Shown here: piece by piece, positions 3,974 through 38,131 of the stretch
Position numbering within the stretch: position 1 is the stretch's first letter
Layout: every line of letters starts with the position of its first letter
From: a virus
Taxonomy: Duplodnaviria; Caudoviricetes
DNA length: 47,804 nucleotides
Virus record (IMG/VR): IMGVR_UViG_3300030095_001639
Location: 1 to 47,804 of that record
Strand: one strand, 5' to 3'
The notes under the pieces: model-generated
Databases searched by the model: none
Seen by the model: only the letters and a program-made list of their open reading frames with translations
Told to the model about the DNA's origin: nothing
Program-made: the position numbers and the translations under genes

Positions 3974-5287
3974 CTATAAAATAGGGCTTACTTTACCCTG
4001 TTCGTCGACAATAAGTACTCTATCACTTATAACATAATAACCAGGAGCTACTGGTGTGCCTGCTGTTTTAGCTTCATTGACTTGTGACTCAAAGAATGTT
4101 TGTGCATCTACATCAGACGGTATTTTAGACGAATCAATTGTTGTAACGTCAACCCCCTCTGTTGCACGAAGAATACCAGCTAACTCATTACCTCTTGGTA
4201 CCTTACCTTTCTTATATCTTTCAGTAATGATGTCAGTAAAACTATCACCCGCCAATGTTTTATTAGCGATTTCTATTTGTTTTTCAGTTAATAAAGCTTT
4301 TTGTTTGGCTGTTGGATCAGAGGCTTTAATATCTTTTTCAATCTCACCTTTAAGTATAAGAGTGTCGATAGCATCTTTAGTTGCTTTTGGTTTATCAAAT
4401 GCTTTACTAGCGCCTTGTATAATTTGATTAATTAATCTACCAGATTTAAGATCACCTTTAAAATCACCAGACTCATTAATTAATCTACTTGCTTCTATTA
4501 AAGAATTGTACGCAGCATCTTTGTTCATACCTTTAATGTCCATGATGTCTCTGTACCTATCAATTTTTCTTTGACGAAGTTGTTTGTCAGTTAATTCTAC
4601 GCCGCTACCTTTTTTAGGAGCATCATAAACAGCTTCTTTACTACCTAATCTAGTTTCTCCACCACCTGGAGGTCCTACTTGTTTTATTTTTTTAATATCA
4701 TTTGGATCTTTAATTTCTTCGCCACTAGATAAAAAATATTTACCAGCTTGGTATGTAACAGGTAATCCTAAAAATGCTAATCCAGATGGAGTTGTAGTTG
4801 CATACTTACCAACATTATAAATACCTTTACCACCAGCTTTAATTCCTCTACCAAGCATAGATGTGCCACCCATTACTGTTTTAGCTAATGGATCATTTAT
4901 AAAAGCTTTTCCAAATTTGTTTGGTTCAAAAACTTCACCTCTTTTAAAAAGAGTTTTCCCTCTTTCAAAACCACCTGGTCCTGAACTCATACTACTAGGT
5001 CTATATTTTACTCTGCTTGCATAAGGAATTGCTCTTTTCATTACAAACTGACCAAAAGGTCTAGCTGCCATTCTTAATCCTTGTCCTATTATAAAAGGAA
5101 GCACGTGATTTGTTCTACCATCAGGTCCTTTGGGATAAATTGGGTTACCTACAAGCGCTGCTCTTTTTGGTCCCTCATCATTAGCCAGCATAGAACCGCC
5201 ATTCTTTTTAGGTTCCCTGATCCCCGACATAACACCCTCTTTGATAGGGCCGCCCATTCTAAACATTGGTCTATTTAATGGTCTCAT
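3974..5287 (-). CDS. Putative internal virion protein
   Basis: 437 aa in the ejection cluster; N-terminal MFRMGGPI and KKNGGSM motifs. Confidence 0.5.
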   Translation of the reverse strand: MRPLNRPMFRMGGPIKEGVMSGIREPKKNGGSMLANDEGPKRAALVGNPIYPKGPDGRTNHVLPFIIGQGLRMAARPFGQFVMKRAIPYASRVKYRPSSMSSGPGGFERGKTLFKRGEVFEPNKFGKAFINDPLAKTVMGGTSMLGRGIKAGGKGIYNVGKYATTTPSGLAFLGLPVTYQAGKYFLSSGEEIKDPNDIKKIKQVGPPGGGETRLGSKEAVYDAPKKGSGVELTDKQLRQRKIDRYRDIMDIKGMNKDAAYNSLIEASRLINESGDFKGDLKSGRLINQIIQGASKAFDKPKATKDAIDTLILKGEIEKDIKASDPTAKQKALLTEKQIEIANKTLAGDSFTDIITERYKKGKVPRGNELAGILRATEGVDVTTIDSSKIPSDVDAQTFFESQVNEAKTAGTPVAPGYYVISDRVLIVDEQGKVSPIL

Positions 5288-5289
5288 AA

Positions 5290-6189
5290 TTAATCAAATA
5301 TTTTTCCGTACAATCCACCTATTCCAAGAGCTGTGCTTAATGCAGATTGGAACGGATTAGTTTGTGGAGAATCTTGGTATTGTTGACCGACACCTCCACC
5401 AAATTGTGATAAAATATTCCCGTATTGTGTTAATCTTCCATATGGTTCCATAGCTGCAGTTCTAAGTTGTTGTTGATCAGCAGATAACTGAGCTTGTGTC
5501 ATTCCACCTCTAAGAGCACCAAGAGAACCTAGTGCAGAAATATCTTGACCCATACCTTGTCTAGCAAAATTAGATAGACCCATTTGATTAGCGCCTTGTT
5601 GTGTGTATGCATTAGCTAATCCTAATTGATCTTGTCCAATTGCTCTTTGGTTTTGAAACGCTTGTTGTGCAGCATTCTGTGCTTGCATAAAATTTTGTTG
5701 TAGTAGACCAGCCGTGATCCCCGCTCTTCCTGCAAGTGATTCAGCATCGTACTGACCTAACATAGCACCCTCTCTACCACCACCGAAGTTACCCGATGAG
5801 ACTGCAGCGTCTTGTATAGATCTTCTGTCCCCGATTCTTGATTGATCGAACTGTCTTAAAGTTTCGTCAATAACCTGTGTTTGATAAGGTGACATAAAAG
5901 GTTGATATGCCTGAGCCCCGGTCAATGCTCCTAGACCACCTGCTGTTTGTGCAGCTCCGCCAACTTGATTTGCAGAGGCTGCTTGTGCAGCTTGCGCTGC
6001 TGTTAAAAATGGTGCGTAGGATCCAACACCTTGTGTTGCTAATCCTATTGCTTGTGTTTGTAACGGATCTTCACCAGCAACAAATTGTCTACCAGTAAAT
6101 TTGTCTGTTTGAAGCGGCGCTTGAAAAGCAGCTGTGGCTTGTGTGGTATAATCTTTTACTACGTCTTCTAAATAATCTGGTACTGCCAT
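5290..6189 (-). CDS. Putative ejection (DNA transfer/pilot) protein
   Basis: 299 aa, Gln/Ala/Gly-rich, YQPFMSPYQTQVID and GNFGGGRE motifs, hydrophobic Gly-rich C-terminus, as recalled for podovirus ejection proteins. Confidence 0.55.
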   Translation of the reverse strand: MAVPDYLEDVVKDYTTQATAAFQAPLQTDKFTGRQFVAGEDPLQTQAIGLATQGVGSYAPFLTAAQAAQAASANQVGGAAQTAGGLGALTGAQAYQPFMSPYQTQVIDETLRQFDQSRIGDRRSIQDAAVSSGNFGGGREGAMLGQYDAESLAGRAGITAGLLQQNFMQAQNAAQQAFQNQRAIGQDQLGLANAYTQQGANQMGLSNFARQGMGQDISALGSLGALRGGMTQAQLSADQQQLRTAAMEPYGRLTQYGNILSQFGGGVGQQYQDSPQTNPFQSALSTALGIGGLYGKIFD

Positions 6190-7664
6190 TATATTACCCT
6201 CGATTGTAACATTTGTTGTTGTTCATACATTCTTTGTGCCCCTTCTAGGCCTTGTGAATCTTCAGAAACTTCTCCACCTTCTTCTAAATTTTTCATTAAA
6301 TTTTCCATAACTTCTGCGCCTTTGTCTATGTCTCCGCCTCCAGCGTTTCTAACAGCATCTGCTGTAAATACAAATTCATTTTTAGATAATCTTGCTGGCA
6401 CGTCATCTGCTCTTTCTTTGCCGCCAATTGCTACAAAACCACCTTCGTTTCTATAATCTTTTTCCATGCCACCCATGTCAATAAGTTCTTCTGCTTCCTC
6501 TGTATTCATAATACCACCATCCTGAGCCATGGCTCTTGGTTGTTCCATACCCGCACCTTCTGGTGCAGCTTGTTGCATTACTGCTTTTACAAATTGTTCA
6601 AAAGACATGTCACCACCTTTGTTCTTATATTTTACATACTCCATCATGAGCACTTGTTGGGCTTGTTGATTTCCTGCATCACCACCCATGTTTAAAAAAG
6701 TTTTAGGCATTTTTCTGTACATGCCAAAAGAACTTACATCTTCTTCGTCCTCTTCATCTATCACTGATTTACCCTTAGCATAACCTGCACGACCACCGTC
6801 AGCTGCTACAAAAGGGTCTAACTCTAAAGCCCTTATAAGATCTTCACCGTATCCACCTTCTTCGACTTCATCTGGATCATACCCAGCGTCTTTTAATTTT
6901 TTTAATTGCATTAAATTAAACTTACCTTGTCCTTCAGTTGGTAATGTAAGTGCATCTGCTACAAGAGTTGGTTCGTTAATAGATGGTGTAAAAATTGGTG
7001 TGTCTCCTTTATCACCAGTAAATGGATTATCATTTCTAATATTTCCTTTTACGTCTGTGCCTGGAGATATATCTTCTCCAGAAGCTAGTGCACCTTTAAA
7101 AAAACCAACACGATTATTCAAATTAGCTAAGCCACCTTCTGCAGCATAAAAATTAGGACTAACAAATCTTTTGTCAGGCATAAAAAATAAACCTGATTCT
7201 TCTGGTGTTTGATTTTGTCTATAAAAATCTACAGCTCTTTGTCTAACTGCTACAGGATCTAACATATCGACTTCTTCTACTTCTTCTTCACCACCCATAA
7301 AAAACGGCAGTGCTGATGCTGCAAGTCCAGCTGTAAGAAAAGATCTTTTAGGTGAAAATGCACCTTTAGTTCCAAACAAACCTTGACCGGCTAAACCTTT
7401 TCCATCTTTAAGACCAAAAGCTAATCTACCTGCACCACTCAAAATATTTTGTAGTCCAAAATTAGATCGACCTGCCGCCAGTTGTTTTAAAAAACCGCCT
7501 TTTCCTGCTGCACCCAAAGCACCTAGACCATAGGCACCTGCAGCAAACAAAGCAGCCTTACCTATTGGACTTTTAGCAATTTTTTTAATACCTCTAGTTG
7601 CCTTTTTTACAAGGCTTCCTAGTCCGTATAATTGTCTGGGTTCTTGCATTCGAGATATTGCCAT
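6189..7664 (-). CDS. Virion protein with multiple xxGG motifs and a C-terminal tape-measure-type 'DDVPARLSKNEFV' domain
   Basis: 491 aa; GGFV..GGKERADDVPARLSKNEFVFTADAV resembles the GG..G...SDSIPA.LS.GE[FY]V motif of tape-measure proteins. Confidence 0.55.
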   Translation of the reverse strand: MAISRMQEPRQLYGLGSLVKKATRGIKKIAKSPIGKAALFAAGAYGLGALGAAGKGGFLKQLAAGRSNFGLQNILSGAGRLAFGLKDGKGLAGQGLFGTKGAFSPKRSFLTAGLAASALPFFMGGEEEVEEVDMLDPVAVRQRAVDFYRQNQTPEESGLFFMPDKRFVSPNFYAAEGGLANLNNRVGFFKGALASGEDISPGTDVKGNIRNDNPFTGDKGDTPIFTPSINEPTLVADALTLPTEGQGKFNLMQLKKLKDAGYDPDEVEEGGYGEDLIRALELDPFVAADGGRAGYAKGKSVIDEEDEEDVSSFGMYRKMPKTFLNMGGDAGNQQAQQVLMMEYVKYKNKGGDMSFEQFVKAVMQQAAPEGAGMEQPRAMAQDGGIMNTEEAEELIDMGGMEKDYRNEGGFVAIGGKERADDVPARLSKNEFVFTADAVRNAGGGDIDKGAEVMENLMKNLEEGGEVSEDSQGLEGAQRMYEQQQMLQSRVI

Positions 7665-7686
7665 ATTTTTACCTTAATTCTTCGTT

Positions 7687-8216: not shown

Positions 8217-8383
8217 TATCCCTCCAAGAAGAAGAGTTTAGCTTCTATCTCTTGTTTTACCTCATCTTGAAATGAGGTGTTTAATTTTGTAATTACAGAA
8301 TCTAAATCCCTAACCAATGACTGTAGGTTAGTTTGATTGTATTCTGGTTCTGCTCTAGTTAATGATTCTACTATTTTTGCCAT
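8216..8383 (-). CDS. Small hypothetical protein, 55 aa (MAKIVESLTRAEPEYNQTNLQSLVRDLD...)
   Basis: Hand-translated; fills the gap exactly with TAATG overlaps at both ends. Confidence 0.75.
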   Translation of the reverse strand: MAKIVESLTRAEPEYNQTNLQSLVRDLDSVITKLNTSFQDEVKQEIEAKLFFLEG

Positions 8384-9312
8384 TATAATAAACTTGCTAG
8401 TCCCCCTCTTTTAAAACCATAATCACTCGCATAACCATAGTCCGCTTCTTGTTGAGTTGTTGGGCCTGAGTCTCCTTTAAATTGATTGCCACCAATCTGA
8501 TCAGGAACTCCAGAACCTCCTCCACCTATATATTTTTTACCACCTTTATTATCCTGTGATGATGTATCTATAAACCCATCGTTTGAATCCCCAGGAGTAT
8601 TTGCCTGTATTATTTCAAGCTCTGCAGCCTTAGCTGCGTTTAAATCTTGTAATCTTTTTATTAGACTAGTGTCAAAGTTATCGTCTTCTTCATCATATGT
8701 TCCTGCATAGATAGCATTTATGGCATCTTGATCTAATCCATATTTATCACCCGTTAAAGTTTTTTCTATTCTATCCATTCTTTTTTGATAAGCATTTTGT
8801 AGACCATAAGTTGGTGGTTCACCAAACTTACCGCCCGTTAATGTATACAAACCACCACCCGATACAGGATTGTAATCTTTCATTAATCCACTTGATACTC
8901 TACCTATATCATCAACTCCATAAAATTCTCTAAGGGCTGATTGACGTGGATCCATTTTTGGTACTAAACTTCCAATACCTCTTAAAAGAGAACCAGAAAG
9001 AGATTTTTCTCCAAACGGAAGAAACTCTAATATATTAAATTTATTTTTTGCATCAGGTGCATCTATAAACCCATCGTTTGAATCCCCATAATTACCTTGA
9101 AAAGTAGGTTCTAATTCTGCTTCTCCTGGATTTGAAAAAACAGGTTCGTTGTTTTGATTTTTTGTAGACATTATGTAGTTGGTCAAATCAAAATTAGGTT
9201 CATTTGCAGCTAACATAGCTCTAGCTTCGTCCGGGTTTTTTAATCTTATTTGACCTTCTTCATCTATAAACATAGTTCTTGGATTAAATCCAAAATCATA
9301 TAAACTAGCCAT
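8383..9312 (-). CDS. Acidic hypothetical virion-associated protein ending in FKRGGLASLL
   Basis: 309-aa ORF coupled to both neighbours; internal GDSNDGFID duplication. Confidence 0.6.
   Translation of the reverse strand: MASLYDFGFNPRTMFIDEEGQIRLKNPDEARAMLAANEPNFDLTNYIMSTKNQNNEPVFSNPGEAELEPTFQGNYGDSNDGFIDAPDAKNKFNILEFLPFGEKSLSGSLLRGIGSLVPKMDPRQSALREFYGVDDIGRVSSGLMKDYNPVSGGGLYTLTGGKFGEPPTYGLQNAYQKRMDRIEKTLTGDKYGLDQDAINAIYAGTYDEEDDNFDTSLIKRLQDLNAAKAAELEIIQANTPGDSNDGFIDTSSQDNKGGKKYIGGGGSGVPDQIGGNQFKGDSGPTTQQEADYGYASDYGFKRGGLASLL
8566..9088. repeat. Exact 28-bp direct repeat (8566-8593 and 9061-9088)
   Basis: atctataaacccatcgtttgaatcccca occurs at both positions. Confidence 0.9.
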
Positions 9313-11489: not shown

Positions 11490-11534
11490 TATCTCACTAT
11501 ATATAAGTAGTGCCAAGATTCAATGTTAAAAAAA

Positions 11535-12206
11535 TTACATCTCTTGGTTCTTTTTCATCTCAGGTATACCCCACCTTATTCCTTTATCAAGTTTTAAATC
11601 ATTAAAAAAACCAACTAAAGTAAGCCTATCCCCTTTGTCTTGTTTACTAACCATATTGTGAGCAAAATGATATTGAGAAGAATCAAAAATAAACACCCTG
11701 TTTTTCTTAGAGTTTACTCTAATGCTTTCTTCAAACTGACTGTTGTTGTCTAACAGTTTTTCTCTAAACTCAGGTGCTTTACCTGTTCTATTTCTCATGT
11801 TTTTAATAGGTACATGTTTAACATATGAAGTTAAAGATTTTGGCAAAGCTATTGATGTTCCTACATCCGTGTGATCTGAAAGATAGATCATAACAGTAAA
11901 CAAATAAGGATGATCATGGTGAACCCAGCCTTCTGTAAATTCTTTTTCTTTCTTATCCATTTTAATTTTTTGAAAAGTAAAAGTTCCATCCCACGACATA
12001 TCGTAGTTATCAGTTGGGTACATTAAAGAGATTACTTTTTTACATACCTTGGTCCATAAAACTCTGTTTACTAGCTCTAACGGTTCTGATCTTACACCAG
12101 GCCATTTACCTTCTGGGTCCGGTTTATAAGGTAATGAATTAGCAATTTTTATAATGTCATCACAATCATCAAAAAAATTATCAGCTATTATATTTGGAAC
12201 TAGCAT
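11535..12206 (-). CDS. 2OG-Fe(II) oxygenase family protein
   Basis: GWVHHD (HxD), distal FDSSQYH and RLTLVGF. Confidence 0.75.
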   Translation of the reverse strand: MLVPNIIADNFFDDCDDIIKIANSLPYKPDPEGKWPGVRSEPLELVNRVLWTKVCKKVISLMYPTDNYDMSWDGTFTFQKIKMDKKEKEFTEGWVHHDHPYLFTVMIYLSDHTDVGTSIALPKSLTSYVKHVPIKNMRNRTGKAPEFREKLLDNNSQFEESIRVNSKKNRVFIFDSSQYHFAHNMVSKQDKGDRLTLVGFFNDLKLDKGIRWGIPEMKKNQEM

Positions 12207-12784
12207 TAGTAATTATAAGATAGAGTCATTCGTTTGTTTTCTTTTAAACTTGGTGGAACAAAGTGTCTAATATCTGACCTAAAGATTAGTAGTTGTCCAG
12301 GTATAGGTTTAAAGTTTACTGTGTTGTAAGTCATGTCATTAAATCCTTCTCTTTCGTGTGGTGGCGTCATTTCTGAATTAGGGTTTTCGAAATATAACGG
12401 AGAAGAATATTCATTAGATTGTAAAAACAATACCGCACTATAAGTAGAGTGTGCATGAATGTGCGCTTCTTGATAGTGAAATGTTTTACTATATATGTTT
12501 ATCCATCCTCCTAAAGGTTGGTATGTATATTTAGATAAAAATTCTTTGTTGTATAGATTAACATGTTTTGTTATTTTTTCTGTAACAAAATTAAAACTTG
12601 AGTCTTTAACAATATCATATGTTCTTATGGTGCTATAGGTTTGATTAATAAAAGGATTTTTAGTGTCCGGTATTTTTTTAGATATCTTATTAGACAAATT
12701 AATTGCTTTTTTTATTTGTTGTTGATTTAAACAATCTTCCTCTACATAAACACACGTAGGAAAAAACTTATGCGTCTGACTCAT
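12206..12784 (-). CDS. 2OG-Fe(II) oxygenase, TIGR02466-like
   Basis: WINIY..HYQEAHIH..YSAVLFL, PGQLLIFRSDIRHFVPP, RMTLSYN. Confidence 0.8.
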   Translation of the reverse strand: MSQTHKFFPTCVYVEEDCLNQQQIKKAINLSNKISKKIPDTKNPFINQTYSTIRTYDIVKDSSFNFVTEKITKHVNLYNKEFLSKYTYQPLGGWINIYSKTFHYQEAHIHAHSTYSAVLFLQSNEYSSPLYFENPNSEMTPPHEREGFNDMTYNTVNFKPIPGQLLIFRSDIRHFVPPSLKENKRMTLSYNY

Positions 12785-14309
12785 AAAATTTATCTTTCAA
12801 AAAATCGTAAAGACTGGGTAGATCTTTAACACTGTTGTCCCATATTTTTTTTCTTCTTTCAAGGTTTTTAATTTGTGATTCCCATATTTCTCTTCCTTTT
12901 ACTTCAGAAGAATAATTGTTGTAACAGATAGAAGACTCATCACATGGAGCCCAATTAAAACCTGCACTTATTGCAGATAAACCAGAGTTAAGTGGAAACT
13001 GAAAATCAATAAACTTTCCCCTAACTGATTGTAGTAAACCATTTTGATAATCATTTTTTAAATTAATTATACTACTGGACCATTGTTTGTTTTTTTGGTA
13101 TCTCCAATACTCACTGTCTTCTCTAACGGTAAAGGCATAGTGCAAAGCTACAAACTCTGCAAAATTTTTAAATGTTAATTTGCATATATGTGTAAAAGAA
13201 TCCTTGTCTAATTGATTAACTTCTCCTCTCTCTAAAACCCTACATAAATGATGTAAAAATTCATGCACAGAAAATAAACCATTACTTTCTAATGGCTCTA
13301 TAAATCCTGCCGACAAACCAATGCCTACAACATTCTTAACCCATAATTGGTTATGAATACCAACACGCATATCTATCTTTCTAAACTCTAATTTGCTAAC
13401 ATCTGTTTTATTTTTTAAGTGATCTTTAAATTCTTTTAAGGCTTTTTCTTCTGTGGTAAATTTTTTAGAAAATACATAACCAGTTCCTACTCTAGCCCAC
13501 AAGGGTATATTCCATACCCATCCATTTTTTAAAGCCGTACAGTTTGTATAAGGAACTAATTCTTTTTTCTTGTTCTTGTAAGGCATTCTAGTAGCCCACG
13601 CTGTATCGTTAGGCAATAGATCAGAGTATGACTCAAATGGTATCTTCATTGTCTTATCTAAAAGCAATGATTTAAATCCTGTACAATCTATATACAAATC
13701 AGCCTTGTGTTTGTTTAATGACACTATGCCGTCTTTGTTTGTTTTTATATCGTCAATGTCCTCTACAACATGTTTAACACCTTTTGGTTTACAGAAATAA
13801 TCTCTTAACCAAATACCAAATTTAGTTGCATCAAAATGATATGCGGTATCTGTGTGATAATTAAAAGGCAGCTCGTGTATTGGTTCGTCAGTCATTTTGT
13901 TTTGATTTACCAGAGCCATTGCGGGATACATTGTATCTGCAAAATCTGTTTGTTTAGTTTTAGGATAAAGAATTTTTTTAAACCACCAATCATTAGTTTC
14001 ATTAATGTTGCCTTTAATGTGTGCACCACCAAATGGATAATGAAAGTGAGTTCCTTTTTTATAGAAGTCTGTAAATTTTATACTTAGCTTTAAAGAAGCA
14101 CCAGTTGCTTTTATAAAAGACTTTTCATCTAAACCTATAAAAGATGTCCAGTTTTTTATTTGACCTAGTGTGCTTTCTCCCACACCGACTGTAGGTGTGT
14201 TTGGAGATTCTATAACAGTAATATTTTTTGTAGGAAAACGTTTACACAAAGTTGCTGCTGTCATCCATCCAGCAGACCCACCTCCCAATACAATTATATT
14301 TTTAATCAT
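12768..14309 (-). CDS. Flavin-dependent tryptophan halogenase family protein
   Basis: GGGSAG FAD motif, GVGEST, conserved Lys region (LKLSIKF), AYHFDA, IDCTGF, WVWNIPL (WxWxIP), GFIEPLES. Confidence 0.9.
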   Translation of the reverse strand: MIKNIIVLGGGSAGWMTAATLCKRFPTKNITVIESPNTPTVGVGESTLGQIKNWTSFIGLDEKSFIKATGASLKLSIKFTDFYKKGTHFHYPFGGAHIKGNINETNDWWFKKILYPKTKQTDFADTMYPAMALVNQNKMTDEPIHELPFNYHTDTAYHFDATKFGIWLRDYFCKPKGVKHVVEDIDDIKTNKDGIVSLNKHKADLYIDCTGFKSLLLDKTMKIPFESYSDLLPNDTAWATRMPYKNKKKELVPYTNCTALKNGWVWNIPLWARVGTGYVFSKKFTTEEKALKEFKDHLKNKTDVSKLEFRKIDMRVGIHNQLWVKNVVGIGLSAGFIEPLESNGLFSVHEFLHHLCRVLERGEVNQLDKDSFTHICKLTFKNFAEFVALHYAFTVREDSEYWRYQKNKQWSSSIINLKNDYQNGLLQSVRGKFIDFQFPLNSGLSAISAGFNWAPCDESSICYNNYSSEVKGREIWESQIKNLERRKKIWDNSVKDLPSLYDFLKDKFYESDA

Positions 14310-25525: not shown

Positions 25526-25535
25526 AAATTACGTA

Positions 25536-27604: not shown

Positions 27605-27608
27605 ATGC

Positions 27609-28649: not shown

Positions 28650-28667
28650 AGTTTTTCTCCTCTATGA

Positions 28668-29063
28668 TTAAAATTCGTGGAATATATCTTCGGGGTTATC
28701 CACGGTTGCTAAAACTTCATCATCATTAAGAAGTCTTATCTCACCCCCATCTATTTTAATTCGTGATCCTGCATATCTTGCGAATACAATCCAATCACCT
28801 TTTTTACACCAGGGACCCTCTGGGTATCTTTCTTTATCATAGCAGTGTGGTCCCATGTCTAAAATTAAACCACAAGTTGATGCTACTTGTGATCTTTCTA
28901 ATGTTTCATCTGCTAATATTACTCCACCTTTCGTTTTCTCTTTTTGTTTAAAAGGTAAAACTAAAAGTCTCCAACCTGTTGGTTTAGGAAGTTTTTGAGA
29001 TTCTGATTTTTTTAAACCAATAAGATCATTTTTTGGTTTTAATATCGACGACTGTTCCTTCAT
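28668..29063 (-). CDS. groES: Co-chaperonin GroES (Cpn10)
   Basis: P.GWRLLV, EKTKGGVIL mobile loop, GD.I.F.RYAG, LLNDDEVLA. Confidence 0.9.
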   Translation of the reverse strand: MKEQSSILKPKNDLIGLKKSESQKLPKPTGWRLLVLPFKQKEKTKGGVILADETLERSQVASTCGLILDMGPHCYDKERYPEGPWCKKGDWIVFARYAGSRIKIDGGEIRLLNDDEVLATVDNPEDIFHEF

Positions 29064-29256
29064 TTTCTTTTTGCTCCTTTTTATCTAGCAGGGTGGATAT
29101 TTCCTGATTTAAATATTGATACGTTCGTATCTGTCCTAACATATATTGGTATTTCTCCATATTGTCAACACCTCCTGAGGCCATCGCAGATATAACATCA
29201 TCATGCCTCATTTTTATAATCCTTCTTACTTTTTCTATAAACGTTAACTCATCCAT
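29026..29256 (-). CDS. Small hypothetical protein
   Basis: ORF-track entry; GGVDNMEKY.YMLGQI; coupled to neighbours. Confidence 0.65.
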   Translation of the reverse strand: MDELTFIEKVRRIIKMRHDDVISAMASGGVDNMEKYQYMLGQIRTYQYLNQEISTLLDKKEQKENEGTVVDIKTKK

Positions 29257-29393
29257 TATTTTCCTCTCTTCCTATCAACATTTTTTATTGTTCCTTTATT
29301 TTTTGAAGCATAAAATACAGTTTCACCTTTTTTCTTGCCATATTTTTTCTTCATAGATTTCATTATTTTTTTACCTTTATCTGTTAATGGCAT
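29256..29393 (-). CDS. Small basic protein, 45 aa (MPLTDKGKKIMKSMKKKYGKKKGETVFYASKNKG...)
   Basis: Hand-translated; TAATG overlaps at both ends. Confidence 0.75.
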   Translation of the reverse strand: MPLTDKGKKIMKSMKKKYGKKKGETVFYASKNKGTIKNVDRKRGK

Positions 29394-29611
29394 TATAATA
29401 CCGCTCCTTTTTCGGGTTCAAACTCATCTAAAACTGCTAACTTTTCTTTTGCATTTGCAATTTTTTCTAATTGTTTATCTACTTCTTCTATGTGTTGTGG
29501 ATGCTCTCCAATACCAACACTGTTTTCTAAATAGATATTTGCAGTTGCATCAGCATGTGCAATTTCAGCTTCATACTTAGCTCTTAACGCTTCTATTATT
29601 GCTCTTCGCAT
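29393..29611 (-). CDS. Small acidic hypothetical protein
   Basis: YLENSVGIGEHPQ motif recalled from marine phages. Confidence 0.65.
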   Translation of the reverse strand: MRRAIIEALRAKYEAEIAHADATANIYLENSVGIGEHPQHIEEVDKQLEKIANAKEKLAVLDEFEPEKGAVL

Positions 29612-29873
29612 TTCTTATTGTCTCCTTACCTTTCTTAAAAATTGCAGCGACTTTTGATTTACCCATAACCTTGGCACGCTGTTCTCCAACAGTTAATATC
29701 TGAATTTTCCTCGCAAACGGTTTTGAAATCTTTTTAACTTTCGCAACAGTTTTCTTCGCATCCAATGGAGTTTTAAACTTAATGCTGACAGTGTCTCTCG
29801 GATTCTCATCTGTGTATAACCTCCTTCCTGAACCTTTTGGTTTTTTACCTGTACCTACTTTAGGATCAGCCAT
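29577..29873 (-). CDS. Small basic protein (LYTDENP.DT motif)
   Basis: Lys-rich; GRRLYTDENPRDTVSIKF. Confidence 0.65.
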   Translation of the reverse strand: MADPKVGTGKKPKGSGRRLYTDENPRDTVSIKFKTPLDAKKTVAKVKKISKPFARKIQILTVGEQRAKVMGKSKVAAIFKKGKETIRNAKSNNRSVKS

Positions 29874-30158
29874 TTAACATTTCCATCTTCTACGCGCCTG
29901 CCTTAGTCTTGAATTAGGATCTTTTGCAGCTTTTGGAAACTTCTTCATTTGTCCTGCACTTCTCGCGCAGTATGATTTACGTCTTTTAGCAGCTTTAGAT
30001 CCTGGTTTGACTTTGCCAGTGACCGCTGTTTTTAATTTTGACCCTGGATTTTTTCTTCTGTACGCAGCTACACCTTTAGCTGTCATACCCGCACCAGATT
30101 TTGTTGATCTAAAATTTGTTTTATTTCTAGCAGGCATGTTATCTTGTTGTCTACTCAC
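29874..30158 (-). CDS. Small basic protein, DUF6321-like
   Basis: GMT.KG...YRR.NPGSKL, RRKSYCARS, DPNSR..ARRRWKC (family name from memory). Confidence 0.6.
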   Translation of the reverse strand: MSRQQDNMPARNKTNFRSTKSGAGMTAKGVAAYRRKNPGSKLKTAVTGKVKPGSKAAKRRKSYCARSAGQMKKFPKAAKDPNSRLRQARRRWKC

Positions 30159-30442
30159 ACCCTACCTCCGAAACTCATTTTTTTACGTTTTGCAAATGTT
30201 GCAACGTTGGTTGGTTTACCGCCCACACCCTGAGCTACCGATCGTTTTCGTTTGACAGCACTCGCCCTTTGCGAGTCGCTCATCCGTGTGGCTTTTGCAA
30301 GTGGGACGCATTTTGGATACTTCCTCTTCGCGTCTGATTTTTGTTTTGAACGGCCACATTTTGAAAATGAACCATCTTTTTTCTTGGAACCAATGTCTAC
30401 CCATTTTTGTTTGAACCATTTATCAAGACCATTTTTAGCCAT
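30155..30442 (-). CDS. Small basic protein (L.KWFK.KW.D motif), ends MSFGGRV
   Basis: ORF-track entry; CGR, YPKC.P; DUF5872-like from memory. Confidence 0.6.
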   Translation of the reverse strand: MAKNGLDKWFKQKWVDIGSKKKDGSFSKCGRSKQKSDAKRKYPKCVPLAKATRMSDSQRASAVKRKRSVAQGVGGKPTNVATFAKRKKMSFGGRV

Positions 30443-30446
30443 GGTG

Positions 30447-30758
30447 TTAAACTACTTTAGTTAATTTAGATCTATCAGACATGATAGCTCCGCATCCTCT
30501 AGCAACAAAAGCGTTTCCACCCTTTTTTAAACCCTGTCTTTTTAATCTAGCTGTAGCTTCCATAAGACCACCACCTGCTTTTCTGATTCTACCGCCCATA
30601 GCTTTTTTAGGACCTTTAAAATCTTTTCTTTTAACTCCAGATGGATCTTTAATTTTACCTGCACAAATTCTACTAGCATATGCGTTTGCATACGCCGACG
30701 GGTACACGTCAAATTTTCGTTTCGCTGCCGCTTTACCTCTAGGACAAAGTTTGGTCAT
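30447..30758 (-). CDS. Small basic protein (KF.VYPSAYAN motif)
   Basis: ORF-track entry; three GG motifs; ARGCGA. Confidence 0.65.
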   Translation of the reverse strand: MTKLCPRGKAAAKRKFDVYPSAYANAYASRICAGKIKDPSGVKRKDFKGPKKAMGGRIRKAGGGLMEATARLKRQGLKKGGNAFVARGCGAIMSDRSKLTKVV

Positions 30759-30892
30759 TATTTTTTTCTCGCTGTTTGTTTTGCTCTTGCAAAATTAGCT
30801 GCAGTCGGAGCACCTTTTGCTCCCTTCTTTCTCATTTTACCACCACGCTTTCTTTTAGCATGAATGTTTGCATATAAACCAGGACGAGACAT
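30758..30892 (-). CDS. Small basic protein, 44 aa (MSRPGLYANIHAKRKRGGKMRKKGAKGAPTAANFARAKQTARKK)
   Basis: Hand-translated; TAATG overlaps at both ends. Confidence 0.8.
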   Translation of the reverse strand: MSRPGLYANIHAKRKRGGKMRKKGAKGAPTAANFARAKQTARKK

Positions 30893-31041
30893 TATTTTAC
30901 CTTCCCACCTTTTTTCATATAACCCATTTTATTTCTAACTTTTTTAGGTAATTTTTTTAAACCTTTTTGAGATGGTTTAACTGGTTTTAAAGATTTCCCA
31001 CCTTTATTCATCATGGGTCTTTTCATCATTGTTCCGGGCAT
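30892..31041 (-). CDS. Small basic protein, 49 aa (MPGTMMKRPMMNKGGK...GYMKKGGKVK)
   Basis: Hand-translated; AGGA RBS; fills the gap. Confidence 0.75.
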   Translation of the reverse strand: MPGTMMKRPMMNKGGKSLKPVKPSQKGLKKLPKKVRNKMGYMKKGGKVK

Positions 31042-31048
31042 ATATTTC

Positions 31049-31354
31049 CTATTTATTTATTTTTCCAGATTTTTTAGCTTTAGATCCGAACTTACCATAA
31101 GACTCATTAGCAGAAGCTTTAAGTTGTTTTTTACTTCTTTTCTTTTTGATTCTCATAGCAATAGACTCATCTTTTCTATCTTTGTAGCCTTGTTTCTTTT
31201 TCTTAACTCGACCACCTTTTTTCATCATAGCACCACCTGCCATGCCCATGTCTGATGGATAATAACCAGATCTCATATCTCTTCTAGCTGTACCACCACC
31301 CATTAGCTTAGTTCTAGGTTGTGTAGTTTGTTTATTATAGTTTGGGTTTGCCAT
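31049..31354 (-). CDS. Small basic protein
   Basis: Start MANPNY at 31354 with GGAGG; QGY.DR.DES motif; MMKKGGRV. Confidence 0.65.
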   Translation of the reverse strand: MANPNYNKQTTQPRTKLMGGGTARRDMRSGYYPSDMGMAGGAMMKKGGRVKKKKQGYKDRKDESIAMRIKKKRSKKQLKASANESYGKFGSKAKKSGKINK

Positions 31355-31355
31355 T

Positions 31356-31961
31356 TTATTTTCCTCCTTTAAATGCTCTTCCGAAGCCACGTTTTGCAGC
31401 TCCTGTTCTCACTGCTGTTTTTTTACCTTTAACTATTCTACCGCCTTTTTTAGCCATCAAAGCTGATTCAGGCACGCCTTGTAATATATTTGGAATAGGC
31501 GCAGTATATGTCATGTCGGAACTTAACATAGCTGGTTTTTTATTTCTAGCTGCAAAAGTTCCAAATTTTCCTTTAGTATACGGTTTGCCATCTTGATAAA
31601 TATATTTATCTCCAACAAACATAGATTTTTTATTTCCTATTTTTTTAGGGACACCTTCACTGGCACTTTTAATTGTATAAACTTCACCTTTGTCAGTTAC
31701 TCTTTTAGATAACGGATTTTTCTTAGGTTTAGCAGGCATGCTATCCATAATAGTAGTTTTAGTTCTAGTTGGAGTAGATACAATTGATTCTTTAAACTCT
31801 ACATCATCAACCGTTGGTCTTAAACCACTTCCTCTTCCGCTATCAACACTAACATTTGACATTTCTGTTCCTTTGCCTCTGTTAGCTAAAGCTAAACCAG
31901 TTCCTAAAGCAGCTAAAGCTCCTAAAATTCTTCTATTTCTTTTTCTAGATTTTTTGCTCAT
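31356..31961 (-). CDS. Basic protein with N-terminal hydrophobic segment
   Basis: MSKKSRKRNRRILGALAALGTGLALA; C-terminal MAKKGGRI and G.AKRGFG. Confidence 0.65.
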   Translation of the reverse strand: MSKKSRKRNRRILGALAALGTGLALANRGKGTEMSNVSVDSGRGSGLRPTVDDVEFKESIVSTPTRTKTTIMDSMPAKPKKNPLSKRVTDKGEVYTIKSASEGVPKKIGNKKSMFVGDKYIYQDGKPYTKGKFGTFAARNKKPAMLSSDMTYTAPIPNILQGVPESALMAKKGGRIVKGKKTAVRTGAAKRGFGRAFKGGK

Positions 31962-32344: not shown

Positions 32345-32347
32345 AAT

Positions 32348-32530
32348 TTAATACCAAGTTGCTTTTACAGGCTTCTTGTCAGGTCTCATTCTTCGAGTAC
32401 CTTTAACTTCCACAGTTTGAGACGTAAAAGGATCAGTTGCTTGGATGATTTCACCACCTTTTTGCATTCCGTCCTTGTCTGCACCCAACTCTGGAGTTAT
32501 TTTTGGGTTTTTTATATTATTTTTTGTCAT
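32348..32530 (-). CDS. Small hypothetical protein
   Basis: AAGGAG RBS; MQKGGEI; ends ATWY. Confidence 0.65.
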   Translation of the reverse strand: MTKNNIKNPKITPELGADKDGMQKGGEIIQATDPFTSQTVEVKGTRRMRPDKKPVKATWY

Positions 32531-32544
32531 AGTTTCTCCTTATA

Positions 32545-35058
32545 TTATCTTTTTGGACCTTTCAAGATCTCTACATCAACCATTTTCATTAAATCGTTCT
32601 CCATTTTAGCGGATTGAGACATTGCTTGCTTAGTTAATGATGTATTTGCTCTTAATTGTGCCAATTCTTCGTTCTGATCTAGTTTTTCATCAAATTGTTG
32701 TTGGCCCATTAGCTGTTTAGAACGATCTAAATCAATTTTTTCTTGATCTTGATCACGTTTGGCAGCATCATTCATGGCTCTTAAGTCTAATTCTCTTGCT
32801 TTTAGTTGTGCAACAGGATCATTATTAAAACCACCCATGATTTTGTTTTCTTCTTCTTTAAATTCTTGAGTCATCTCTGCAATTAATTTTGCTTTTCTAG
32901 ATTCAAGACTCATTGACATAGTCATAATTTGTTGTTGGTACTGAGGATCTTGTTGTAACATTGGATTTTGTTGAACCATCTGTTGCATTTGTGTTAATTG
33001 CATTATCTCTTCTCTAAACTCTACTTCTAATTGCTCTTGTGCCATTAAAGAAATGTGTTCAAATATATTTTTTTCTAACGCTCCCATAATTGGTGGTGCG
33101 TTTCTTGCAATGTTAGTTGCCATAAAATTTAAGTGAGTAGTTATATGTGCTCTGTGATCTTGACCTTTGAAAGCTTGAAAAGGTTTTCCTGACATCGCTA
33201 AAATATTTTCTGCAGCCGGGTCCATTGGTTGTGGTTGTTGCGGTGGTGGCAAGACTTTGTCTATGTTTTTTACACCGATTGCTGTGTACATCGCGTGAAA
33301 TGCTTCGTACAAATTATGCATTTGTGGATTTGACATTGCAAGTTGTAATTCTGTTTGAGCTAAACTAATTCTTTGTGACTGTGAAAATATATTTGGATCA
33401 GCTACAGGTATGATATCTACCTTATCATCAAAATCTAATTGTTTAATATTTCTTTGACCACCAACAACATCGTAAGGATATTCTTGTGGAAGGTATGTTT
33501 TGTAAACCCCTGCTAATAATTGAAATTCATTTTTCATCGCCACATACAATCTTTTATGTATGGCTGACATGACCCTGGAGCCACGCTCTAAGAGGGCTAT
33601 GGTCGTACCAACAGCTGCCTGCTGGTTGCCGTCACCGACCTGCATGTCAGCTATGGCGGCGAATCGTTGTCCTGCATTTACTACAATCCCCATCAGTTGC
33701 AACAATGTTGCTGATGGTTCTTTAAATGGTAAAGGCATAAATGCATCTCTGATACTTCCACCAGGTGCATCAACATCTCTAAATTCGCCAGGCTGTATAG
33801 CTTGAGCCTCGTCTCTGACACGGATTCCCCTTTGTTTAAATCCTGCCGGTAAATTACTTAAAGTTCCTGCGTCTAACAATTGACGTAAAGCAGTAGTTGC
33901 AGTTCTAGACAAACCACCGATCATATGAATTAAACCAAAACCATAGAAACCCATTCCAGGTAAAAATTTAAAATGCACAAAATAATCTATCTTAAGTTTT
34001 TGTGGATCTTCTGCTTGATAGTTTCTTCTAATTGATAATATTTCTCTGCCACCCATTTCAAGAGTTACAATGTACGGAAGTTTAATTCCTGTTGGTTCTC
34101 CTGTTGAGTCTTTGTCTTCAAAACCTTCGATGTCTAAATCTTGGTGTATTTCTAAAATTGTAAAAATGTCTTCGTCTCTAGTTTTTCTTACACCTTCTAG
34201 TTCTCTTTCTTTTTTCTCTACTTCTGTTTCTTGATTATAGCCAGGTGTTAATTCTATATCTCTATAAAAACCTGACACTTGTTTTTTTCTTAATTCGTTT
34301 TCTGACATTTTAATTACGTGAATAACAGACTCTGCATCTTCTAAAGAAGTTGCAGTGTAAGGCACAACTAAATCATCTGCCGGTACGAATTTTGAAACGG
34401 CTCTGCCAAGAAGTTCATCGTAATAAACTTTCTTAAAAGCAGAGCCACTAAGAGGGAGATAAAAAAGCATTTGATCGAACTCGGGTTCATACTCCTTCAT
34501 CACGTCCATGAGCTGATAGTTCATGAATTCTTTTACACGTTGAGACTGTTCTTCTCTCGCTCTGTCAGCAAGTCCAACTATTCTTGTATGTACGGGACCT
34601 GATGCAGGTAATAATTCTTTATATGCTTGTGCTTGAAATTGTGTAACCGCTTCTGCTAACACAGGGTGAGTTGCACCCGATGCACCTTGAAATGGTTGTG
34701 TTGGATTTTCATATTTAAATCCTAAAAGATCTAAACCTTTTGTGTAAGTATCTTCCCAATCTTTTCTAGAAGATTTATATTGTTCGTAATTTGCAGCAAG
34801 GTCTGACCCTAATTTACCTAAAACATCTTCAGGTAAAAGTTCTGCTAAGTTATCAAAATGTGAATTTGTTCCAGGTTGGTTAACTGCCTCTGGGTCAAAA
34901 CTAATTGTAGCTCCCCCATCTTCTTCTTGAGTAATTTGTACGTCTTCAGGACCAACTTGTTCTTGAATAGTTTCTTGTTCAGCAACTGCGATTTCTTCTT
35001 CGCCAGGTACTTTAATTTCAGTCTCTACGTTTGGAAGAGCTTTGTCTATATCTGCCAT
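32545..35058 (-). CDS. Portal protein
   Basis: 837 aa; SR.DW..Y..GL.LLG, HP.LAEA..QFQA, LPL.GS.FKK.Y.D, G.YG.GL.H, L.DAG.L.N; Gln-rich C-terminal barrel; between terminase and head genes. Confidence 0.9.
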   Translation of the reverse strand: MADIDKALPNVETEIKVPGEEEIAVAEQETIQEQVGPEDVQITQEEDGGATISFDPEAVNQPGTNSHFDNLAELLPEDVLGKLGSDLAANYEQYKSSRKDWEDTYTKGLDLLGFKYENPTQPFQGASGATHPVLAEAVTQFQAQAYKELLPASGPVHTRIVGLADRAREEQSQRVKEFMNYQLMDVMKEYEPEFDQMLFYLPLSGSAFKKVYYDELLGRAVSKFVPADDLVVPYTATSLEDAESVIHVIKMSENELRKKQVSGFYRDIELTPGYNQETEVEKKERELEGVRKTRDEDIFTILEIHQDLDIEGFEDKDSTGEPTGIKLPYIVTLEMGGREILSIRRNYQAEDPQKLKIDYFVHFKFLPGMGFYGFGLIHMIGGLSRTATTALRQLLDAGTLSNLPAGFKQRGIRVRDEAQAIQPGEFRDVDAPGGSIRDAFMPLPFKEPSATLLQLMGIVVNAGQRFAAIADMQVGDGNQQAAVGTTIALLERGSRVMSAIHKRLYVAMKNEFQLLAGVYKTYLPQEYPYDVVGGQRNIKQLDFDDKVDIIPVADPNIFSQSQRISLAQTELQLAMSNPQMHNLYEAFHAMYTAIGVKNIDKVLPPPQQPQPMDPAAENILAMSGKPFQAFKGQDHRAHITTHLNFMATNIARNAPPIMGALEKNIFEHISLMAQEQLEVEFREEIMQLTQMQQMVQQNPMLQQDPQYQQQIMTMSMSLESRKAKLIAEMTQEFKEEENKIMGGFNNDPVAQLKARELDLRAMNDAAKRDQDQEKIDLDRSKQLMGQQQFDEKLDQNEELAQLRANTSLTKQAMSQSAKMENDLMKMVDVEILKGPKR

Positions 35059-35194
35059 TTATTTTCTCCGAGTTCTCTATGTTTCTAACTTGTTTTGTGG
35101 GAAGATTCAACCCTTGTGGATCAGGGCCCTTCAAAGGGGGTATCGCTTTAAATTTGACGTGTTGCATATTTACAACAAGAGTTTTATTCTTCAC
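35018..35194 (-). CDS. Small protein with IPPLKGPDPQGL motif
   Basis: Likely GTG start at 35194 with GAGGT upstream; overlaps the portal start. Confidence 0.5.
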   Translation of the reverse strand: MKNKTLVVNMQHVKFKAIPPLKGPDPQGLNLPTKQVRNIENSEKINGRYRQSSSKRRD

Positions 35195-37166
35195 TAAACA
35201 TACCTCTTTTGTTTCTATAATCGTCAAATAACTCATACCCACTAATACCAGCAGATAATGCAAGACCCGGTAATCCAAATCTTCTAGATACAGTTTTTAA
35301 TACACTTGGACTAATCCCAAGTCTCATTGTTTTTGCAATCGCAGGACTTACTCCTTTTGTAGCAAAGTCAGTTACAGGACCTGCAAAAGCAGCTCCTAAA
35401 TAATTCATTGGATTGGTTGCAATGTCGGTTAACGAATCTCCTTGTTGAACTTGACCCGCTAAAAATAATGGTTCAGTTGCAAGTAAACCTGCTGGAGTTC
35501 CAAGTGTTGCTAAACCTCTTCCTAAAGTTTTTAATGCTGTCTTTGTAATTCCAGATGGTTTTTTTCCAAATCTTCTAGATGTTGCAGCTTCAATTGTAGA
35601 TGGTGCAACTGCTGCAGTTCCAGCCACAGCGCTAGCTCCTAATACCGGTAATTGATAATCTAATATTGGAGGTCTTTCTTGTGGTGTATCATCCAATGAT
35701 CCTGTCACCATATCAATTAACAAATTCTTTTGTTGGTCTTCATTTGATAAATAAGTTTCTGGATCGTCGTTCATAAATTTTTTAACAACGCCTGCTGTTG
35801 CTGCACCTGCTGCAGCAAATGCACCAAACATACCAGCTCCTCTTAGAAATGGACTTTGTAAAAGTTTTGTCGCTGAGTTTTTAAATTTATCTATTTTACT
35901 TGCATCTCTTACTAATTTTTCTGGCTCCTTTTGTATTGCTTCTTCAACAGCGTCGACACAACTTATTGTTCCACCATTTGCTTTTTTAGTTCTAACTAAA
36001 CTACAAATAGGTCCATTATTCCCAGCATCTTTTCTTATATCTATAAATAAACTTTTTATTTCATCAGGTGCTTCCATCGATTCTAGTGTTTTTAAAATTC
36101 TAGGAAAAGAACCTGTTTTACTATCATAAGCTACATCTGCTGCAGCACCTACTCTACCAACGTTTGGAAGTTCAACACGTATATTTCTTTCTTTTAAAAT
36201 ACCATCTAACTGTGCCGCTGTTTCTTCGTTAACACCTTTGTTAAAAAAATTTGTTAACTGACTCTGTACAAAAGCTCTGTTAAATTGATTAGGTGTTATG
36301 TTTACATTAGTTGGATATCTTCCGCCTCGTTTTCTTTTAGCCACTGGACTAACATCAAAAAGATCAAACAGACGTCCATCTTTTGCTTTCTGTAAATAAT
36401 AATCATCTGATTTTAATCTAGAATAAAAATTACCTGTATCTTTATCTAAACGTATAGCCATCATAGCTTTTACATTTTGACCAAAAGGAGTAGTGTTAAT
36501 TAACTCTGGTTTATTTTGAAAATAATCATTTATCGCTGATATACCACCCTGTATTTTTTTAATATTTTGTTTATCTAATTCACTAGCACCTTTTGTAACT
36601 GCTTTTACATTTTCATATCTTCGTTTATTTCTTTTGTATGATACTTCTTCTGGATCTCCTGCAGGGGTTCTAAAACTAGTGTTTTTTCTTTTATCTAAAG
36701 CAGTCTCCGCCTCTTCTCTAGTATTAAAATATTTAAGACCTATAAACTCTTCAGGTATGGCAGTTGTTTTAACATCTAAATTAGGTCTTCCAAACTCAAC
36801 TTTAAATTTTGCACCTGCCGGAATATCTGGGTTTCTTGTTCTGTCTATATTAGTTATTTCTCGTATAGAATTAAATCTAGGTTCTGTTCTTCTAGACTCT
36901 TCAAAAAATTTAAAATCTTTTAAAGCAATTGGTTTTATTATATTCTGATTTCTTCCTGTTGTTAAAATTCTACTAATAGTAGATCTTCCAATATCTTTAT
37001 TATGTTTTTCTTTTAAAAATTTTACTATTTGATCGGGACCTAATTTTTCAGTTTCATATGTATCTAAAATTAATTTAATAGTTTTTGCGTCTAAACCAGA
37101 TCGTTTGCCACCACCTGTAAAATAACTTGCATATATCTCTTGAACTTTATTGATATCAACAGCCAT
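35184..37166 (-). CDS. Modular protein: DNA-binding/nuclease-like N-terminal half plus Ala/Gly-rich hydrophobic C-terminal half
   Basis: HTH-like QIVKFL..IGRSTISRIL, AP2-like KYFNTREEAE, C-terminal amphipathic segments. Confidence 0.55.
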   Translation of the reverse strand: MAVDINKVQEIYASYFTGGGKRSGLDAKTIKLILDTYETEKLGPDQIVKFLKEKHNKDIGRSTISRILTTGRNQNIIKPIALKDFKFFEESRRTEPRFNSIREITNIDRTRNPDIPAGAKFKVEFGRPNLDVKTTAIPEEFIGLKYFNTREEAETALDKRKNTSFRTPAGDPEEVSYKRNKRRYENVKAVTKGASELDKQNIKKIQGGISAINDYFQNKPELINTTPFGQNVKAMMAIRLDKDTGNFYSRLKSDDYYLQKAKDGRLFDLFDVSPVAKRKRGGRYPTNVNITPNQFNRAFVQSQLTNFFNKGVNEETAAQLDGILKERNIRVELPNVGRVGAAADVAYDSKTGSFPRILKTLESMEAPDEIKSLFIDIRKDAGNNGPICSLVRTKKANGGTISCVDAVEEAIQKEPEKLVRDASKIDKFKNSATKLLQSPFLRGAGMFGAFAAAGAATAGVVKKFMNDDPETYLSNEDQQKNLLIDMVTGSLDDTPQERPPILDYQLPVLGASAVAGTAAVAPSTIEAATSRRFGKKPSGITKTALKTLGRGLATLGTPAGLLATEPLFLAGQVQQGDSLTDIATNPMNYLGAAFAGPVTDFATKGVSPAIAKTMRLGISPSVLKTVSRRFGLPGLALSAGISGYELFDDYRNKRGMFSEE

Positions 37167-38131
37167 TAGACCTCCAGGATCTTAGCTAGTCCGCCTTTAG
37201 CAAAATCTTGCACTTCGTCAATAAACGTTGCAGTCAATCTGTCGAACCTAGGACTGTCTGGTCTATTGCCTGCAGCATCTACTACGTTGTTTAAAACTCT
37301 TTTTGTAAATATCGCAATCTCTTCTGAGCTAGCGTTTGTTGGAAGCATTTCTGCAATTCTTGGACCAAAGTATTTATTAACCAATACGACTGGATCACCA
37401 GCGATGCCGCCACCGCCCTCTGTAATATATTTTATATCTTCTGCAGATACAAAGTCACTAAAAGTATTTCCGCCTTTTGCAAGGTCATCCTCTTTTAACG
37501 CCTCTACTAAAAATTCTCTAGCAACACCACGTTTACCCGGAGCATCGCCTTGATTAGTTACCACAGATCTAAATTGTGCTGCAATTGCAGGATCTTGTTT
37601 TTCTAAATTTCTAATTGTTGTTTCAGCATCTTGAATTGGTGCTGCAATATCATCTGGTCCACCACGTGAACCTGGTGGTGGTAGATCATCTATCATACTT
37701 GATGGTAATATTGTATCTCTTGGATCAACACCTTCTGGCAAGTCTATGTCATCTACTTTTGATCTTAGAGACATTAGACCTTCTTGATCCAGGTTCCTGG
37801 TCCCTGTTGCCAGGTCCGTGATGTTTGGAACTTGTTTAGGATTGAATACGTCATCAATCTTTGTCATATTAGAAAGTAATTTATTTGCTTGAACGTCGTT
37901 AAGTTTACCAGCTGTTAAGTAGCCCATAGAACTTTCTAACTCTTCTAAAATTTTATTTTTACCTAGAACACCTATTGCCTCGATATTGATGTCAGAGTCG
38001 ATGAACCCTTCAGGATTTTTACCCTTTCCTAAAAAAGTAATGTTGGACCGGGAACCAAGGACATTGTTCATGTTCCCACCTAATTTTGAAAATAGATTTA
38101 TAATTAAATTTGTTACTTCTCTTTTAGCCAT
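37166..38131 (-). CDS. Acidic hypothetical protein ending FAKGGLAKILEV
   Basis: 321-aa ORF coupled to terL. Confidence 0.65.
   Translation of the reverse strand: MAKREVTNLIINLFSKLGGNMNNVLGSRSNITFLGKGKNPEGFIDSDINIEAIGVLGKNKILEELESSMGYLTAGKLNDVQANKLLSNMTKIDDVFNPKQVPNITDLATGTRNLDQEGLMSLRSKVDDIDLPEGVDPRDTILPSSMIDDLPPPGSRGGPDDIAAPIQDAETTIRNLEKQDPAIAAQFRSVVTNQGDAPGKRGVAREFLVEALKEDDLAKGGNTFSDFVSAEDIKYITEGGGGIAGDPVVLVNKYFGPRIAEMLPTNASSEEIAIFTKRVLNNVVDAAGNRPDSPRFDRLTATFIDEVQDFAKGGLAKILEV

Follow-up and report, generated by a model that had tools for sequence, protein, structure and literature searches.

The stretch of DNA analysed here (the window) is a linear virus of 47,804 bases, IMG/VR record IMGVR_UViG_3300030095_001639, about 77 % complete. 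It is probably an HTVC023P-type pelagiphage, since its capsid protein (25536-26444) shares 82 % identity with that of Pelagibacter phage HTVC027P and 74 % with that of HTVC023P. Its late genes occupy the minus strand and include the terminase (38124-39608), portal (32545-35058), GroES (28668-29063), capsid and tail genes as well as an ejection block, in which 5290-6189 matches the PHROG family "DNA ejection protein" and 57-3965 encodes a virion protein. About a dozen unrelated proteins of these late genes share a short Gly-Gly tag, summarised as [FYMLA]-[AK]-x-G-G-[RL]-[VAI]. An original prediction, made from the letters alone, had pointed out such a peptide in 11 dissimilar open reading frames (ORFs); all 11 lie on the minus strand as given, and every quoted peptide is present in the translations.

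The tag was defined by an unseeded fit of two mixture components to 579 Gly-Gly sites in those 517 proteins, out of 1374 from 160 related IMG/VR loci, that have no blastp hit (E 1e-4) to window proteins. A first fit merely separated glycine-rich from other sites, and glycine-rich contexts were then removed. One component of the final fit was [FYLM]-[AK]-[KD]-G-G-[RL]-[AV]-[GSK], and thus the motif emerged unsupervised. With six doubtful ORFs removed (66 of 72 kept), a profile score of at least 4 is reached by 10 sites in 9 of the 66 window proteins, against 1.07 ± 1.05 in 1000 glycine-fixed shuffles (maximum 5). The tag is therefore real and enriched about tenfold by this held-out profile, the hold-out being incomplete in that some training proteins occupy the same gene slots as window proteins. 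The originally proposed pattern [FYMA]xxGGx[AIVLM], which is post hoc, also exceeds its shuffles, with 17 hits against 6.0 ± 2.5 when residues are shuffled (1 of 1000 reaching 17) and against 8.3 ± 2.7 when every glycine is held (4 of 1000); a broader regular expression gave 9 against 5.1 ± 2.2 (z 1.8). In 47-50 kb of each relative, the profile found 8 sites in HTVC027P (0.9 expected), 12 in 023Pt_psg01 (1.0 expected), 4 in DSL-LC04 and 2 each in Pag-Yong1 and CRP-902, and it found none in the 50 kb of HTVC023P examined. Seven of the peptides first listed as examples score below 4, namely AAEGGLA (3.9), KANGGTI (3.4), MNKGGK (-0.2), YRNEGGFV (-1.2), AQDGGIM (-3.6), FRMGGPI (-3.6) and MQKGGEI (-3.9). 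Two of these seven are nevertheless well conserved: all 32 orthologues of 3974-5287 have FRxGG, and 11 of the 13 of 32348-32530 have MxxGG.

The tag is often C-terminal, as first noticed by eye: 92 of 299 distinct sites lie within 15 residues of the protein end, where 21.6 are expected. An A or K precedes x-G-G in 85 % of the 299, and a spacing of 8 residues between neighbouring tags is the commonest by far (50 cases; next 12). Near the N-terminus, the window has only the tag of 3974-5287 and one weak site in 30892-31041. The gene slot of 8383-9312 has 37 occupants in 6 families, 27 of which end in a tag; as this includes 23 of the 31 occupants without blast similarity to the protein of the window, the tag is retained despite turnover of the protein body.

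A C-terminal Gly-Gly could also arise from the Shine-Dalgarno GGAGG of the next gene, with chance matches in glycine-rich proteins making up the rest. Two window sites fit this explanation: MSFGGRV* (30155) and AFKGGK* (31356) may be Shine-Dalgarno by-products, because their Gly-Gly codons form a GGAGG that precedes the following start codon by 5 and 7 nt, respectively. Within 6 residues of the stop, GGAGG encodes 50 of 78 untagged Gly-Gly pairs and 7 of 15 tags. However, GGAGG is absent from 233 of the 244 tags at internal positions and from 65 of the 89 that lie 7-15 residues from the end, and the enrichment persists in glycine-fixed shuffles. The artefact thus accounts only for sites within about 6 residues of the stop; it is refuted for most sites and very improbable as a general explanation.

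Among the individual carriers, all encoded on the minus strand, the 491-residue acidic protein of 6189-7664 consists of variable segments separated by tags (Gly-Gly codons 7131-7136, 6792-6797, 6513-6518, 6438-6443 and 6273-6278), with a module at its C-terminus. At least one tag is found in 220 of its 240 homologues (282-1231 residues), in which tag count rises with length (Spearman 0.66) and the tags separate variable segments. In the ejection-gene block, 3974-5287 (437 residues) has the N-terminal tag FRMGG (5249-5254, score -3.6), recurring as [FY][RK]xGG in 32 of 32 orthologues, and the hypervariable slot holds 8383-9312 (309 residues), which ends in FKRGGLASLL (8401-8406, score 12.6). 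The 321-residue acidic protein of 37166-38131 ends in FAKGGLAKILEV (37190-37195) with the top score of 13.1; the strict motif occurs in 33 of 33 orthologues and lies at most 16 residues from the end in 29 of them. Between the terminase and portal genes, 35184-37166 (660 residues) has KANGG (35970-35975, score 3.4) about 260 residues from its end; the pattern is present in 23 of 59 orthologues, and many of the 14 long ones printed have similar sites at a comparable C-terminal distance. The 60-residue protein of 32348-32530, after the portal gene, contains MQKGGEI (32453-32458).

Five small tagged proteins are encoded in the portal-GroES interval (30155-31961), with isoelectric points (pI) of 10.6-11.5, some untagged neighbours being equally basic. 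The first, 30155-30442 (95 residues, pI 11.0), ends in MSFGGRV (score 6.7), and its 8 orthologues all have the strict motif. The 103-residue protein of 30447-30758 (pI 10.8) contains KAMGGRI (30591-30596) and LKKGGNA (30516-30521), each scoring 5.5, whereas the 49-residue micro-protein of 30892-31041 (pI 11.5, 35 % Lys plus Arg) has the C-terminal MKKGGKVK (30904-30909, score 9.4), which is not a ribosome-binding site because it lies 145 nt from the next start. MKKGGRV (31211-31216, score 12.9) marks the basic 101-residue protein of 31049-31354, with the strict motif in 17 of 17 orthologues, and AKKGGRI (31440-31445, score 8.9) marks the basic 201-residue protein of 31356-31961, whose terminal AFKGGK is probably the by-product mentioned above. 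The GroES co-chaperonin gene adjoins this cluster and occurs in all six cultured relatives shown as well. Beside the tagged genes, 29256-30158 encodes more very basic micro-proteins (pI 10.5-12.0, one of them DUF6321) with no Gly-Gly; in HTVC023P, a DUF6321-like protein starts with FKRGG.

These basic proteins and the strong 8-residue periodicity would suit a tag that is a self-associating structural repeat, through which basic and acidic late proteins condense together or with DNA and no dedicated reader is needed. Many tagged proteins, however, have a single copy, and neither the co-occurrence of tag and module nor the match to a real cut site, both described below, would follow from self-association, so that we consider it quite improbable.

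Capsid and scaffold had been said to have no comparable tag, and this stands: the major capsid protein has no Gly-Gly at all, the listed site of the putative scaffold scores -7.3 and the best portal site -1.8, and the strict motif is absent from capsid and portal relatives. It is likewise absent from the 45 relatives of the DNA-ejection protein (5290-6189) and from the 22 of the large virion protein (57-3965). The tag therefore does not mark all head cargo, as the main ejection proteins are without it; an address or cleavage signal is still the best reading, but not one marking the whole set inside the head. Of uncertain membership is the terminase large subunit (38124-39608), which was not on the earlier list. 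It has the tag-like IRQGGLV (38193-38198, score 2.5) 24 residues from its end, kept as R[FI]RQGG in 26 of 27 orthologues, and it also holds one of the 10 profile sites, LQPGGRI. The R[FI]RQGG site may dock terminase or may be unrelated.

The C-terminal part of the 6189-7664 protein, already suspected to be relevant, proved to be a tape-measure-type module (6270-6452, residues 405-465) of 60 residues with the layout GG...D420-x-x-A-x-L-x-x-x-E430-F-V...two helices...GG. It matches PHROG tape-measure families, the match being confined to residues 406-466 of 491, and the PDB tape measures 8zdo, 8rk3 and 8iyk; the top three PDB sequences ranked by its profile are Douge gp16 (E 2e-35), JBD30 gp46 (3e-13) and lambda gpH 732-783 (0.0034). 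At least 3784 cluster representatives match it, and G409, G415, D420 and E430 are invariant in a 55-sequence alignment, in which no Cys or His is invariant. Of 34 tape-measure-type copies of the module, 33 have a motif-like (F-A-x-G-G-like) Gly-Gly in front of it, a number to which the profile itself contributes in part, and 27 have one behind it. These 34 do not include L334, a probable false hit, nor four entries that were podovirus-like or unclassified. Judged by profile comparison, the module is homologous to the glycine-bounded C-terminal module of siphophage tape measures, including that of lambda gpH. Its carrier, however, is no long-tail tape measure, but a 491-residue protein beside a DNA-ejection gene in an HTVC023P-type genome. 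Pfam assigns the module and the tagged proteins to no family, except for a weak helix-turn-helix match in 35184-37166 and for the terminase, which is recognised as such. Family scans (Pfam, PHROG) covered 47 of the 72 window ORFs, and neither a prohead-protease gene nor a peptidase family was found among these 47 proteins of a record about 77 % complete.

Variants of the module occur elsewhere. In DSL-LC04 (L004:43137-45416) and five relatives (G718, G719, G720, G721 and G726), the same protein contains a further segment preceded by a tag, G-x-D-[TS]-x-L-A-H-[IV], which is module-like, has a His and no GE, and is possibly a diverged second copy. In HTVC115P, an unrelated pelagiphage, gp72 (L345:6293-7300) combines the module with about four tags in a single protein. 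Its gene lies two genes after that of the portal and two ahead of that of the capsid, a frequent location of prohead proteases. An ORF of about 400 residues in a bacterial genome (L348, G128:C1:2390525), probably of a podovirus prophage, starts with the module, has one more tag and adjoins an adaptor-like gene.

We tentatively propose, at somewhat less than an even chance, that the module reads a loading tag on late proteins, which is then clipped. As a candidate reader or (auto)protease, the module at the end of the 6189-7664 protein would bind the tags of other late proteins and gather these proteins into the assembling head. Clipping would occur just before [AK]-x-Gly-Gly, a position taken from the T5 literature, and the invariant Asp420 and Glu430 may be the catalytic residues. 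Since the residues recognised would lie after such a cut, a tag at the C-terminus would be released as a peptide of 6-11 residues, leaving the cargo free, while internal tags would split a modular protein into pieces. The small basic proteins may then act as DNA-neutralising core proteins.

The cut register comes from the tape-measure protein pb2 of T5, which was mapped by mass spectrometry as cut after R1127 (in the accessible part of PMC10038345). The sequence at the cut is P-R1127-A-E-G-G, so that the scissile site reads R|A-E-G-G, and R-A-x-[GS]-G is kept in all five T5-family relatives fetched. As pb2 has five Gly-Gly in 1219 residues, we estimate a chance match at about 0.4 % for a fixed register, rising to a few per cent when all nearby registers are admitted. 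DT57C also keeps the cut C-terminal fragment, according to the part of PMC10713586 consulted. In lambda, gpH loses about 14 kDa from its glycine-rich C-terminal region, cut site and catalyst being stated as unknown in the portion available of a 2025 structure paper (PMC12617516). F733|A-T-G-G starts the module of gpH. For JBD30, a cut at 1066 is a PeptideCutter prediction rather than a measurement and was left unused. In crAss001, gp45 (L383:26988-29516) has 9 [AK]xGG sites against 3.95 expected (p 0.008), seven of them outside its glycine-rich N-terminal part, against 1 across the other 27 proteins of the region. It is cargo protein C1, of which a domain was seen bound to the portal wing, with the portal-bound piece resolved from residue 425 (PMC10172136, in part). 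Residue 425 is the A of A-F-G-G, and the resolved piece ends before the next site at 560. PF25725, the family of gp45, has no match in the window genome at E <= 10, and a DAC15 hit to the T5 fragment (E 6) fell in a non-structural region and is put down to chance.

The main rival is docking alone: the tag would be an address to which the module (or else portal or scaffold) binds to load cargo into the head, with no cut in this phage. Docking would suit the terminal placement of tags, their tandem copies, which would raise avidity, and the free exchange of protein bodies; no protease fold was found, the gp45 domain was bound to the portal wing, and a resolved structure would begin at the tag also if the chain simply became ordered there. 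It nevertheless leaves unexplained the mapped T5 cut at R|A-E-G-G and the many internal tags between variable segments, and we regard docking alone as possible but unlikely. Alternatively, the tag could be the cut site of a host peptidase or of another phage enzyme, the module folding round its own tag and not acting on others. The T5 module is not detectably related to that of the window although the cut motif matches, HTVC115P has the tag solely in its module-bearing protein among the 36 ORFs examined, and a 1973 title cited in the T5 paper (known to us by its title) names selective host involvement in tail-protein cleavage. On the other hand, phages whose hosts differ greatly have similar motifs, and the enrichment of the tag across many proteins tracks the module, so that such an enzyme seems to us rather improbable.

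This last relation was seen in the CRP-902 clade, which has the same capsid, portal and GroES layout as the window phage. None of 12 CRP-902-type records (6 at least 90 % complete, plus the isolate) matched the module, although a very divergent copy would be missed. For a tag regular expression (applied in the window to all 72 ORFs), z was at background in 7 CRP-902-type genomes (-1.1 to 1.5) and 1.0 to 6.1, median 3.5, in 15 module-bearing ones (rank test p 0.0004). That tag enrichment tracks module presence is suggestive only, because the test sets one clade against the rest.

Several points weigh against our proposal that the module reads and clips the tag. As to co-occurrence, the module-negative clade amounts to one evolutionary event, the regular expression was chosen after the data were seen, the module itself served to select the IMG/VR positives, and by the window-clade profile only 6 of the 15 module-bearing genomes exceed z 3. 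The terminase, normally no virion protein, has a tag-like site while core ejection proteins are untagged. Sixty residues with only Asp and Glu invariant (glycines aside) are small for an enzyme; furthermore, the module model, with a mean predicted local distance difference test (pLDDT) of 75, consists of two confident helices and no strands, and no fold was recognised, as Foldseek of this model gave 4 matches, none with E <5. (A first model from alignment A2 was poor, with a pLDDT of 57.7, and the better one was used for Foldseek; a complex predicted for the module (58 residues) and the C-terminal 34 residues of 37166-38131 scored 0.01 and was counted neither way.) The T5 region after the cut reaches an hhalign probability of 0.2-0.3 % against the module with a 6-sequence profile, and the crAss domain one of 4 %, with 0.83 from ESM Atlas. 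Cleavage of lambda gpH at F733|A would yield 79.7 + 12.6 kDa rather than the published 78 + 14 kDa (both approximate), and the mass is matched at least equally well by other A-x-G-G sites at 707-718. Finally, A425-F-G-G is not kept in DAC15, gp45 homologues are not enriched (DAC15, 4 sites, p 0.28; phi14:2, 2 sites, p 0.18), and the crAss authors treat gp45 as a single uncut chain, as far as the accessible text of PMC10172136 goes.

A more far-reaching version of the proposal, which we think unlikely, would make the Asp/Glu module a new and widespread phage peptidase that cuts x|[AK]-x-G-G. It would be the missing catalyst of the lambda and T5 tape measures and would also process crassvirus gp45 into head and tail pieces, whereas HTVC023P-type phages would use it in trans to load and clip, any gene gaining the 7-residue tag becoming swappable injected cargo. 

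Independently of this version, the finding supplies candidates for the lambda tape-measure cut, namely the x|A-x-G-G sites together with the acidic residues in the module behind them, and a simple reason would be at hand for the parts of crAss001 gp45 seen 420 Å apart. Siphophage tape measures would be tied to podophage cargo proteins. The tag also predicts which of the many genes called "hypothetical" in an abundant group of marine phages have products that travel in the virion and enter SAR11 cells upon infection, and, if this is true, a portable 7-residue loading tag would be a tool for placing proteins in phage heads.

The remaining genes include a small-enzyme cassette within the tail region (11535-17531), relatives of several of its genes being annotated as 2-oxoglutarate (2OG)-Fe(II) oxygenases; by eye, 12768-14309 and 14302-15765 resemble a flavin halogenase and a carbamoyltransferase. 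Pfam identifies another 2OG-Fe(II) oxygenase at 45060-45752 and a LAGLIDADG homing endonuclease-like gene at 44654-45070 (E 1e-8).

Description of the tag or module was not found in the literature searched, subscription journals being mostly outside this search, nor is the tag mentioned in the accessible parts of PMC10386132, PMC7824862 and PMC5512222. The individual ingredients have precedents, since capsid-targeting peptides and multi-substrate head processing are known from T4, jumbo phages and adenovirus.

The capsid-targeting sequence of T4 is an N-terminal 10-mer removed by the prohead protease gp21 after Glu. Like the tag, it is short and transferable and occurs on small or basic proteins that are otherwise unrelated, and its removal after loading is what is proposed for the tag; in contrast, the tag is mostly C-terminal or internal and often tandem, and no such protease was found among the window proteins scanned. 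Adenovirus protease and S273R of African swine fever virus (ASFV) are cysteine proteases that cut after Gly-Gly and read the residues before the cut, their substrates including many basic core proteins with a common Gly-Gly motif. The original prediction had invoked these two and the double-glycine bacteriocin leaders, but the analogies fit poorly: the T5 register, cutting two residues before Gly-Gly, places it after the cut, no cysteine protease was seen among the 47 proteins scanned, and the module has no invariant Cys or His for such a role. The bacteriocin leader is N-terminal, ends in Gly-Gly and goes with a C39-peptidase transporter, whereas window tags are mostly C-terminal or internal and the proteins scanned gave no C39-peptidase family hit. 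Jumbo phages have prohead proteases with many substrates, such as SPN3US gp245 and phiKZ gp175; there, a single enzyme serves many internal head proteins through a short motif, but the motif differs and the protease is of full size, and neither was seen here.

The nearest comparisons are with the proteins that supplied the cut register and the module. Tape-measure maturation in T5 and lambda shares x-A-x-G-G at the T5 cut and a module homologous to lambda gpH 732-783, JBD30 gp46 and Douge gp16, but the window phage is of the short-tailed type with no tape measure, and has one module with tags spread over about a dozen separate proteins. With gp45 (PF25725) of crAss001, the homology is not significant, the tags there are confined to gp45 among the 28 proteins examined, and no cleavage is reported; however, gp45 is also a head cargo in the ejection block, punctuated by A-x-G-G, its portal-bound domain starts at A-x-G-G, and its GE-V-V motif aligns on E430 of the module.

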